30,913 bases of DNA from Escherichia coli (GTDB taxonomy: Bacteria; Pseudomonadota; Gammaproteobacteria; Enterobacterales; Enterobacteriaceae), in the NCBI RefSeq assembly GCF_003334355.1, contig NZ_QOWP01000039.1; one strand, written 5' to 3'. A program made the translations under genes and the position numbers. Shown piece after piece: positions 4,972-11,013 of the stretch. Every line of letters starts with the position of its first letter. Within the stretch, counting starts at the first letter, position 1. Below the pieces are notes generated by a model. The model worked only from the letters and a program-made list of their open reading frames with translations. It made no database searches and had not been told where the DNA came from.

Positions 4972-5038
4972 TCGTACGCACCAAAACGAGCGGGTCAGCT
5001 GGCCCGCTTCAGATTGTGACATAGTGCGCTTTGTTCAT

Positions 5039-5137
5039 GCCGGATGCGGCGTGAACGCCTTATCCGGCCTACAAAAACATGCAAATTCAATAGATTGCAG
5101 AGATTATGTAGGCCTGATAAGCGTAGCGCATCAGGCA
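5039..5137. repeat. REP/BIME element pair (two inverted REP units) downstream of pitA
   Basis: gccggatgcggcgtgaacgccttatccggcctaca at 5039-5073 and the inverted unit tgtaggcctgataagcgtagcgcatcaggca at 5107-5137 match the enterobacterial REP consensus as I recall it. Confidence 0.6.
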
Positions 5138-5161
5138 ATTTTGCGTTTGTAATCAGTCTCG

Positions 5162-5191
5162 AGCGGGTCAGTTTACTGGCCCGCTTTTTTT
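5162..5191 (+). terminator. Rho-independent terminator (pitA side) next to the uspB 3' end
   Basis: Stem agcgggtcag / ctggcccgct (one G-U pair) with loop ttta, followed by a 7-T run. A near-identical stem without the T-run sits at 4988-5008. Confidence 0.5.
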
Positions 5192-6375: not shown

Positions 6376-6401
6376 TCTTCCCTCTACGACGTGTTCCTGA
6401 A

Positions 6402-6431
6402 CGCCCGCATATGCGGGCGTTTTGCTTTTTG
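6402..6431 (+). terminator. Rho-independent terminator of uspA
   Basis: Perfect stem cgcccgcat / atgcgggcg followed by ttttgcttttt. Confidence 0.6.
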
Positions 6432-6692
6432 GCGCGCCTTGTTACCTGATCCAGCGTAAACACCTTATCTGGCCTACGGTCTGCGTTCGCAATCAAAATC
6501 CCCAGCCAATACAATATTTAACACCATCATATTTTCCATCATTAGTGTGATCAGCTGGTTATTTTCTGTTGTAATAGTGTATTAATCTATTCACCGCATC
6601 AATATTAAGAATCTCTGACAGATGTAAACTTTTTCGCGCGTTATCCCTTACGCGTTCATACTTTTCAGGATGGTATTGGAAGGTTAATAAAT

Positions 6693-8970: not shown

Positions 8971-11013
8971 TCAGCCCTTAATGCCGTAATGCTCCAGCAT
9001 CGCATCCAGCTGCGGTTCACGACCACGGAAGCGTTTGAACAGATCCATCGGCTCTTCTGAACCGCCACGGCTCAGAATGTTGTCGAGGAACGACTGCCCG
9101 GTTTCACGGTTGAAAATGCCCTCTTCCTCAAAGCGCGAGAAAGCATCTGCCGCCAGTACGTCAGCCCACAGGTAGCTGTAGTAACCTGCGGCATAACCAC
9201 CGGCGAAAATATGGCTGAAAGCGTGCGGGAAACGGCCCCAGGACGGAGATGGCACCACGGCAACCAGTTTCTTGATTTCTGCCAGAGTTTCGAGGATTTT
9301 TGCCCCCTGATCCGGGCGGAACTCGGCATGAAGGCGGAAATCAAACAGGCCGAACTCCAGCTGACGCAGAATAAACAGCGCCGCCTGGTAGTTCTTCGCC
9401 GCCAGCATTTTATCCAGCAACTCTTTCGGCAGCGGTTCGCCGGTTTCATAGTGACCAGAGATAAACGCCAGCGCCTCCGGCTCCCAGCACCAGTTTTCCA
9501 TAAACTGACTCGGCAGTTCGACCGCATCCCACGGCACACCGCTGATACCGGAAACACCAGCGGTTTCGATGCGGGTCAGCATATGGTGCAGGCCGTGACC
9601 GAACTCGTGGAAGAGGGTGATCACTTCGTCGTGAGTGAACAGCGCCGGTTTACCATTTACCGGGCGGTTGAAGTTACAAGTCAAATACGCGACCGGTTTT
9701 TGCAAAGAACCATCAGCTTTACGCATCTGGCCTACGCAGTCATCCATCCACGCCCCGCCGCGCTTGTTTTCACGGGCATACAGATCGAGGTAGAAGCTAC
9801 CGCGCAGTTCGTTATTTTCGTCATACAGTTCGAAGAAACGTACATCCGGATGCCAGACATCAACATCTTTACGCTCTTTAGCGGTGATGCCGTAAATACG
9901 CTTAACCACTTCAAACAGGCCGTTAACCGCTTTGTTTTCCGGGAAGTACGGACGCAGCTGTTCGTCACTGATGCTGTAGAGGTGCTGTTTTTGTTTTTCG
10001 CTGTAGTAAGCGATATCCCACGGCTGCAACTCATCGACGCCAAATTCGGCTTTGGCAAAGGCACGCAATTGCGCCAGCTCTTTTTCGCCTTGTGGACGCG
10101 CGCGTTTTGCCAGATCGGTTAAGAAATCCAGCACCTGCTGCGGGTTTTCTGCCATTTTAGTGGCAAGGGATTTAAAGGCGTAGTTTTCAAAGCCCAGCAG
10201 TTGCGCCAGTTCGTGACGCAGCGCGAGGATCTCTTCCATCACCTTGCTGTTATCCCATTTACCGGCGTTTGGGCCTTGATCGGAGGCGCGGGTGCTGTAA
10301 GCGCGATACATCTCTTCACGCAGAGCCTGGTTGTCGCAGTAGGTCATTACCGGCAAGTAGCTTGGGATATCCAGCGTCAGCAAATAACCTTCCAGCTCTT
10401 TCGCTTCGGCCTGGGCTTTTGCCGCAGCCAGCGCGCTTTCTGGCATCCCCGCCAGCTCCGCTTCGTCGGTAACGAGTTTGGTCCAGCCCATTGTCGCATC
10501 GAGGACGTTGTTGCTGTACTGGTTGCCCAGTTCAGAAAGACGGGTCGCAATTTCGCCGTAACGCTGCTGTTTCTCTTTCGGCAGACCTATGCCAGAGAGT
10601 TCAAAGTCGCGCAGTGCGTTATCAACCGCTTTCTTCTGCGCCGTGTTCAGCGTGGCGTAATGATCGCCATCGCGCAGGTCGCGATACGCTTTATACAGCC
10701 CTTCATGTTGCCCTACCCAGGTGCTGTATTCCGACAGCAGCGGCAGGGTTTGTTCGTAGGCTTCACGCAGTTCCGGGCTATTTTTCACCGAGTTCAGGTG
10801 GCTGACCGGGGAGAAGATACGCCCCAACACATCGTCCACTTCCGCCAGCGGCTGGCAGAGATTTTCCCAGGTGTACGGTGCCCCTTGCGCTACTACGCGC
10901 TCCACGTTTTCGCGGCAGTCGTTCAATGCCTTAGTCACGGCTGGAACGACATGTTCCGGGAGAATTTTAGAAAACGGAGGCAATTCAAAGGGAGTCAGTA
11001 ACGGATTCGTCAT
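8971..11013 (-). CDS. prlC: Oligopeptidase A (M3 family zinc metallopeptidase, 680 aa)
   Basis: Starts [17 protein letters not shown] at ATG 11013 (the six-frame ORF has 13 extra upstream codons). HEFGH zinc-binding motif present; recognised as PrlC/OpdA. Confidence 0.9.

Follow-up and report, generated by a model that had tools for sequence, protein, structure and literature searches.

Pairs of inverted REP sequences stand after pitA and after arsC in a 30.9-kb stretch of Escherichia coli DNA (30,913 nucleotides, hereafter the window), and a first-pass annotation had read them as possible marks of an old insertion boundary. The locus raises the question of what these repeats are, how they came to lie at the ends of genes, and whether they delimit anything. 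We placed the window on the E. coli chromosome through its open reading frames, 100% matches to complete genomes and the MG1655 annotation. Its gene order runs yhiM, pitA, uspB, uspA, dtpB, rsmJ, prlC, rlmJ and gor, and onward through dinQ, agrA/B, arsRBC, yhiS and slp up to gadW and gadX. There is no rayt gene in the window, and the MG1655 RefSeq record lists no repeat_region features for the stretch matching it. REP and BIME sequences at convergent 3' ends are already known and routine, a part of the textbook knowledge on E. coli from the 1980s and 1990s on. BIME-1, also named RIP or RIB, is a ~150-bp non-autonomous REPIN/MITE-like Escherichia element in which a Y REP is followed by an L linker bearing an IHF-type site and by an inverted Z1 REP, with short terminal inverted repeats (TIRs). 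It has been defined by one y and one z1 REP, a conserved L linker with an IHF site, and occurrence as single copies (Ton-Hoang et al., 2012, PMC3333891). Judging from their sequences, the pair after pitA (site A), the pair after arsC (site B) and a fragment after uspA (site C) are all BIME-1 copies, each at a different stage of decay. Taken jointly, the BIME-1 identity of the three sites, insertion at terminator hairpins and an arsC copy that is no boundary marker form an account that we consider likely to be right.

To describe the family we derived a 151-nt consensus from 14 full-length copies at independent sites, with the TIR AGAYTGMTGACAAA at either end (13/14 match). All the BIME-1 sites that we could name lie between gene 3' ends or inside operon spacers, and with queries containing site A, 5,426 complete E. 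coli genomes gave a median of at least 39 matching places each. Site A aligns end to end with this consensus: it is an intact BIME-1 of 150 nt (5010-5159, + strand) with the TIRs CAGATTGTGACA... and ...TTGTAATCAGTCT. Its Y-type REP, or palindromic unit (5038-5072, + strand), was recognised by reading the sequence, by an exact 14-mer and by naRNA4 hairpin 1; the 35-nt L linker (5073-5107, + strand) by Rfam ES036 and by the IHF-consensus core ATTCAATAGATTG at 5085-5097; and the Z1-type REP, inverted with respect to the Y REP (5108-5137, - strand), by sequence reading and an exact 14-mer. The REP 3' half CTTATCMGGCCTAC is found with 0 mismatches at 5059-5072 (+) and 5108-5121 (-). Scanning with REP consensus models, the check proposed along with the first-pass annotation, bore out the pair: naRNA4 hairpin 1, itself a Y REP, scored 38.2 bits against 5033-5069, and ES036 (RF02751) 42 bits against 5075-5115, with a gathering score of 37.6. 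The ES036 consensus consists of the BIME-1 L linker plus GTAGGCCU, the start of the Z1 REP. The core of the linker agrees with WATCARNNNNTTR at 12 of 13 positions, and the IHF site is predicted from this consensus match. On folding, the element is predicted to form a single long hairpin (MFE -44 kcal/mol; z = -5.8 and -6.1 on the two strands).

Site B, also found by the consensus models through its left REP, is a BIME-1 in decay (16513-16650, + strand), with the left flank CAGGTTGTTAGAAAAGTGCGC and the right end ATTTTGC. Its left REP (16542-16578, + strand) is a Z2-like/Y-hybrid: a 36-nt REP pattern matched 16543-16578 with 2 mismatches (0 matches in 100 shuffles), and the naRNA4 Z2 hairpin scored 31.1 bits, with two compensatory pair changes. 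A degenerate linker precedes the inverted Z1 REP (16614-16643). The pairing of Y and Z1 REPs is therefore a loose one here, with Z1 present and a Z2-like left REP that carries Y-like stem changes. Sites B and A are 78-86% identical over ~122 nt, including the linker and outer flanks; the site B linker has decayed (ES036 20.2 bits, below gathering; IHF core 10/13), and the predicted fold contains three separate hairpins.

What had been listed as a possible REP fragment after uspA (site C) turned out to be a relic of the left half of a BIME-1 (6434-6477, + strand), made of the flank GCGCCTTGTT and a decayed Y REP. It was identified by consensus alignment and by the 14-mer with 1 mismatch. The relic aligns to consensus positions 17-64 with a score of 25, whereas 200 shuffles reached 15 at most; a chance match was ruled out by the extension of the alignment into the BIME-1 left flank. 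It occurs in 5,417 of the 5,426 E. coli genomes at one place per genome, and is hence fixed. The relic gave no significant fold. It is overlapped by the small ORFs yriA and yriB of the MG1655 annotation (window 6442-6526, - strand), so that decayed REP sequence would encode part of these small proteins.

The surroundings of site B differ among genomes. A contiguous arsC-yhiS arrangement like that of the window is found in 3,168 of the 5,426 E. coli genomes, and the other 2,258 lack it. In both of the two non-contiguous genomes that we inspected, a 1.5-kb module made of arsR2 (ArsR/SmtB, - strand) and arsP (PF03773) separates the BIME from yhiS. The window and the module-bearing genomes are homologous through the BIME up to 16706, and again from 16772 on. 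Just past the BIME, the window retains a 3' remnant of arsR2 (16637-16706, - strand) spanning the ~22 last codons, with the translation YTMLDAIIGISRREYCVNSKIA before the stop compared to YAMLEAIIEFLREECCVNSKIA in the intact gene; the stop codon (16637-16639) and last codons of this remnant lie inside the right end of the BIME. It is followed by a 42-nt internal fragment of the arsP permease gene (16718-16759, + strand), 81% identical to positions 10538-10579 of locus L003, inside the arsP CDS. The retention of both remnants indicates that the window state is a deletion derivative, and AT-rich DNA abuts site B here because the 1.5-kb arsR2-arsP module was deleted.

Several other features of the region came to light. 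At L002 9528-9546 (corresponding to window 16637-16650), a locus with an intact arsR2, the stop and last ~3 codons (..SKIA) come from the BIME right end GCAAAATTGCCTGA, and the Citrobacter werkmanii arsR2 ends in ..SPKI using unrelated DNA; the insertion of the BIME seems to have replaced the native arsR2 C-terminus. In Escherichia sp. L088 (GCA_024733345.1), arsP-arsR2 adjoins yhiM (DUF2776) and yhiY, with arsRBC absent nearby, and the module thus occupies varying positions of this neighbourhood across Escherichia lineages. E. coli WP8-S17-ESBL-12 (L003) carries arsRDABC, with extra arsD and arsA, and has chuS/chuA right after dctR, replacing yhiD-hdeBA, so both the ars cluster and the acid-fitness region are mosaic within E. 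coli. In the window yhiS (17122-18345) is an intact 407-aa ORF, split by IS5 in MG1655, with no NCBIfam match; the stretch in which it lies is the window's richest in AT (GC 0.31-0.34). A 30-nt inverted repeat (1973-2002 and 16893-16922, 87% complementary, arms 14.9 kb apart) brackets yhiN..arsC, both of its arms lying in AT-rich spacers beside yhiM and yhiS, and is too long for an obvious chance match. Finally, positions 13878-14222, upstream of arsR and opposite dinQ, hold two 114-nt direct repeats that are 88% identical and contain internal terminator-like palindromes; these are the agrA/agrB antisense RNAs (Rfam AgrB, 106 and 108 bits), which are known biology.

We then considered how BIME-1 copies are placed with respect to genes. 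All three sites do lie at convergent or terminator-proximal gene ends, as had been noted: site A between pitA and uspB, site B originally between arsC and arsR2, and site C directly downstream of the uspA intrinsic terminator (6399-6432, + strand; predicted hairpin 6399-6422). The adjoining hairpin terminators described for every site were recovered at sites A and C, and none was predicted near arsC. At site A there are two of them, flanking the element. The left copy (4987-5009, strand not assigned) reads CGAGCGGGTCAG^CTGGCCCGCTT; it has lost its loop and kept the upstream A-run, and is terminator-like for the - strand (uspB) transcript only (5008-4989, tail CGTTTTGG). The right copy with its T-run (5160-5191, + strand), downstream of the BIME, is of the original type, is identical to the hairpin of alleles devoid of the element and constitutes the pitA terminator; its terminator-like hairpin on the + strand spans 5161-5186, with 11 pairs ahead of the T-run. 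As the hairpin is palindromic, its two copies are able to pair mutually around the BIME, and this paired structure has a predicted folding energy of -108 kcal/mol (z = -9.95).

The history of this arrangement can be read from natural variation. Scoring as filled any genome with at least 80% coverage of a 501-nt query spanning the site, the pitA/uspB BIME-1 is present in 1,940 of the 5,426 complete E. coli genomes (~36%), while the remaining ~64% are without the element plus one hairpin copy, their locus being 173 bp shorter. Four short alleles (O157:H7, APEC O2:K1:H4, AR_0374 and O169:H41) share the sequence pitA-stop...CCAAAA-CGAGCGGGTCAGTTTACTGGCCCGC-TTTTTTT, which forms a single, perfect bidirectional terminator of the intrinsic type. 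The allele of the window bears this same hairpin at 4987-5009 and 5160-5186, with the 150-nt element exactly in between. Among 80 uspB loci of other species, with one genome per outgroup species, a single hairpin was found in Klebsiella, Enterobacter, Citrobacter amalonaticus S646, E. whittamii and other non-coli Escherichia, and is therefore the deep ancestral state of the pitA/uspB spacer. E. albertii has a filled allele with both hairpin copies, in which the insert is 94.8% identical to that of the window and uspB 95.8%; with such a gene-like divergence, the insertion at site A dates far back, and part of the empty E. coli alleles may have arisen by precise loss or by recombinational replacement. 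The direction of gain and loss at this site is ambiguous, given a filled E. albertii alongside empty alleles in several Escherichia lineages that are closer to E. coli.

Details of the spacer in other species are also of note. The loop of the left hairpin in E. albertii, TAAA, is the reverse complement of the TTTA of the right copy, and its asymmetric stem positions are direct; the loop reflects either an inversion by intra-hairpin template switching or two substitutions. The possibility that the left hairpin is an inverted copy was rejected upon manual comparison in E. albertii, where the asymmetric T..G stem favours a direct copy (2 mismatches vs 4). Five uspB loci of Citrobacter and Salmonella carry their own species-specific REP-like doublets between the pitA stop and the hairpin. 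These doublets stand beside a single terminator hairpin without any duplication of it, and C. amalonaticus S646 is empty. The occurrence of separate REP-like doublets at the same spot implies repeated, independent colonisation.

To see if the duplicated hairpin was peculiar to pitA/uspB, we scanned metagenome contigs for exact patterns of the L-linker core, which gave at least 120 loci; 104 usable copies represented 24 distinct BIME-1 sites among the matches listed. For each site, the 45 nt to the left of the element were aligned to the 45 nt to the right, and scores were compared to those of 552 mismatched-flank controls. In 7 of the 24 listed sites the score exceeded all controls (10.5-21.5, for a control maximum of 10.0), two more reached p=0.02 and a tenth was visibly duplicated. 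The repeats are in each case a site-specific hairpin abutting the ends of the element, for instance AAAAACGGGTGGCGTTGCCACCCGA/CAGATTG...CAATCT/CACGGGTGGTGTTACCACCCGGTTTG, where slashes mark the element ends. The element is next to a strong hairpin in 19 of the 24 listed sites, compared to 8 of 24 control windows (p=0.0011); ~9 of the 24 have a hairpin on a single side and a few have none.

Filled and empty alleles could be compared at six loci. At ysgA/metE (filled in 0 of 5,426 genomes, and in a related lineage only), mscS/fbaA (3,720), yqjF/yqjG (78) and lpdA/yacH (494), as at pitA/uspB, the empty allele has one hairpin and the filled allele shows the hairpin-BIME-1-hairpin structure. Whole-hairpin duplication hence occurs in 5 of the 6 pairs, over 21-36 bp (27, ~22, ~34, ~24 and ~21 bp). 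The exception is dppA/dppB (3,250), where the upstream hairpin is not duplicated and only a 4-bp GTAT duplication is seen, so that hairpin duplication is frequent yet not obligatory. Three further candidates were discarded as pairs: at katE/chbG the alternative allele is a non-homologous replacement; the acnB-flank site is filled in no E. coli genome and its left flank is unmatched; and rhlE/ybiA gave no clean empty allele, the one partial match being due to IS1397 in the BIME. In this rhlE/ybiA spacer, E. coli strain 2A bears an IS1397-family, IS3-like element inside BIME-1, in agreement with the published specificity of IS1397, for which BIMEs are an insertion target. A literature search that did not reach the primary papers of the 1990s returned no description of duplicated target hairpins flanking BIME-1; the flanking-hairpin footprint is real in these data, and of all the findings it alone might be new.

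To our knowledge, target choice and integration of REP, BIME or REPIN elements have never been shown in vivo. As a tentative proposal, which we hold to be possible but short of probable, BIME-1 would integrate at the base of a terminator hairpin and duplicate the whole hairpin, the duplication being set by DNA structure with no fixed stagger; REPIN-type elements more generally perhaps insert likewise. The element would enter at the base of the hairpin, and two strand breaks would flank the extruded hairpin or cruciform, adjacent in space and one palindrome-length apart in the duplex. With breaks on either side of the extruded hairpin, repair would duplicate the entire palindrome; insertion and gap repair would then follow. 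Alternatively, resolution of the junction might yield two ends capped by hairpins, which would capture the element. The target duplication of 21-36 bp would have its length dictated by structure. As the enzyme we presume the REP-associated Y1 transposase TnpA_REP/YafM, with a possible part for host junction or hairpin nucleases. In vitro, TnpA_REP has been shown to bind the hairpins of REPs and to cut BIMEs that are single-stranded (Ton-Hoang et al., 2012, PMC3333891). Its relatives, the IS200/IS605-type Y1 transposases, are reported to move without target duplication (Nunvar, 2010), and TnpA_REP is for this reason not an obvious predictor of the hairpin-duplication signature; a contribution of host nucleases, or another mechanism, is possible.

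Other explanations have to be weighed against this proposal. REP or BIME sequences could be edge markers of an anciently inserted AT-rich island, the pair after arsC being its insertion scar or landmark. The transition into AT-rich DNA is indeed there in the window, where GC falls from 0.52 to 0.37 and then 0.33 immediately past site B, and 71% of the cumulated BIME-1 length is found in strain-specific loops (Chiapello et al., 2005); these loops, however, are mostly the BIMEs themselves. The arsR2 and arsP remnants lie just past the BIME, and when the module is present GC remains at 0.46-0.50 for ~1.3 kb beyond the element and drops only after arsP: in the ancestral arrangement site B stands inside the ars cluster and not at a core/island junction. 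The comparison with other genomes that had been called for extends to Citrobacter werkmanii, which has the same arsDABC, a convergent arsR2 and a divergent arsP, and whose arsC/arsR2 junction, a 67-nt spacer, is a plain hairpin without any REP. As read from these alignments, the BIME of site B was inserted within the ars cluster, between convergent arsC and arsR2, and its adjacency to AT-rich DNA is secondary. We consequently regard the island marker as very improbable, and its link to a boundary as a by-product of local deletion. It is just as implausible that site A should chiefly be a gene for a small RNA (Rfam ES036/CssrF) and no mobile repeat. Its ES036 match at 5075-5115 is above the gathering score, but since the model is made of the BIME-1 linker and the start of Z1, a match denotes the repeat family rather than a locus-specific sRNA gene. 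The linker core recurs in the at least 120 metagenome stretches mentioned above, no promoter-like site was found beside site A, and we also count against this reading that a literature search for CssrF returned nothing relevant, only unrelated papers.

Two more explanations bear on the hairpins themselves. The flanking hairpins could predate the insertion, BIME-1 having landed between tandem terminators, or all short alleles could be secondary deletions, uninformative as to how BIME-1 inserts. Direct repeats of 21-36 bp would permit precise deletion, and the filled allele of E. albertii, with its gene-like divergence, means that some empty E. coli alleles may be losses. Bachellier and colleagues are said to have termed such presence/absence events, in 1997, excisions of whole BIME-1, a point in favour of deletion. 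Yet none of five empty alleles has two hairpins, distant outgroups have one at pitA/uspB, and the element ends abut stem bases precisely at more than nine unrelated loci, each with its own hairpin sequence; even if short alleles were losses, the origin of the duplicates would still need explaining. We therefore deem this explanation improbable. The position of the elements might otherwise result from host selection, for which BIMEs would be 3'-UTR stabilisers, bidirectional terminators or attenuators, or IHF/gyrase-linked topological elements, with other insertions purged. REPs are found between 207 of 704 convergent gene pairs, such pairs being more highly expressed, and 78 REPs lie within 306 bidirectional terminators (2026 preprint, 10.64898/2026.03.23.713779); BIME-plus-terminator units have been read as attenuators (Naville and Gautheret, 2010); and the 5.2% mismatches of the site A insert with E. 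albertii are below the expectation from uspB synonymous sites. Selection nevertheless leaves unexplained the exact abutment to stem bases and the site-specific duplication, and the fact that elements so often differ in presence among E. coli genomes speaks against strong selection at any one locus. As the source of the observed positions we find it rather unlikely, though a serious candidate, and it is compatible with hairpin insertion rather than exclusive of it.

Insertion at the base of a hairpin would have consequences for the flanking genes. It would split one bidirectional terminator into two inward-facing one-way terminators, the left with the A-run and the right with the T-run. Since the left copy has the A-run only and the right copy the T-run only, both convergent mRNAs are predicted to carry the BIME in their 3' UTR, where REP stem-loops could impede 3' exonucleases; IHF is likewise predicted to bind BIME DNA at the linker. 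The flanking direct repeats would be a possible route to precise loss. If true, the hairpin reading would provide the first concrete target and geometry for REP/BIME movement, both of them testable and both named by a reproducible footprint of one hairpin in empty alleles and hairpin-element-hairpin in filled ones. It would also mean that an inserted element changes the wiring of a bidirectional terminator and gives each convergent transcript a structured, overlapping 3' UTR, and the 36% of filled alleles at pitA/uspB offer natural isogenic-like comparisons.

How do these elements compare with known systems? Site A shows no difference from BIME-1 (RIP/RIB) as known from the work of Gilson, Bachellier and Hofnung, of Boccard and Prentki, and of Oppenheim, and is a textbook member: it shares a length of ~140-150 bp, a single copy per locus, an extragenic position at the 3' ends of transcription units, presence/absence of the whole element among isolates, inverted Y and Z1 REPs and an IHF-type L linker. 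Site B departs from this type in its Z2-like/Y-hybrid left REP and degenerate linker, and site C is a relic of the left half only. Whole BIME-1 presence/absence among isolates and enrichment in strain-specific loops are on record (Chiapello, 2005, citing Bachellier, 1997).

With REPINs mobilised by RAYTs (Bertels and Rainey; Nunvar et al.), BIME-1 shares two inverted REPs forming one long hairpin, a non-autonomous nature, vertical persistence and an association with a single-copy Y1 (HUH) transposase. Unlike REPINs, it is conserved in sequence beyond the REPs and bears terminal inverted repeats there; and while REPINs and IS200/IS605 relatives are described without target duplication, BIME-1 here shows a long, hairpin-defined duplication at most of the informative loci. 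Bacterial MITEs (e.g. Correia or ERIC-type) are similar in their ~150 bp, TIRs, long stem-loop, direct target repeats and intergenic location, and can also carry an IHF site. BIME-1 has the terminal inverted repeats of a MITE but lacks a fixed short target duplication: MITEs duplicate a fixed short length through a DDE transposase, whereas in BIME-1 the duplication is of 4 bp or 21-36 bp and tracks the local palindrome. We identified no cognate DDE element with BIME-1 termini, and REPs have been described as devoid of MITE signatures (Delihas, 2011). IS1397/ISKpn1 and the IS110-family elements that insert into REPs recognise secondary structure of the target DNA at gene 3' ends, as is proposed here for BIME-1. 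Class C group II introns, in turn, insert after terminator stem-loops. Unlike BIME-1, neither these introns nor IS1397/ISKpn1 and the IS110 family are known to duplicate the whole target hairpin.
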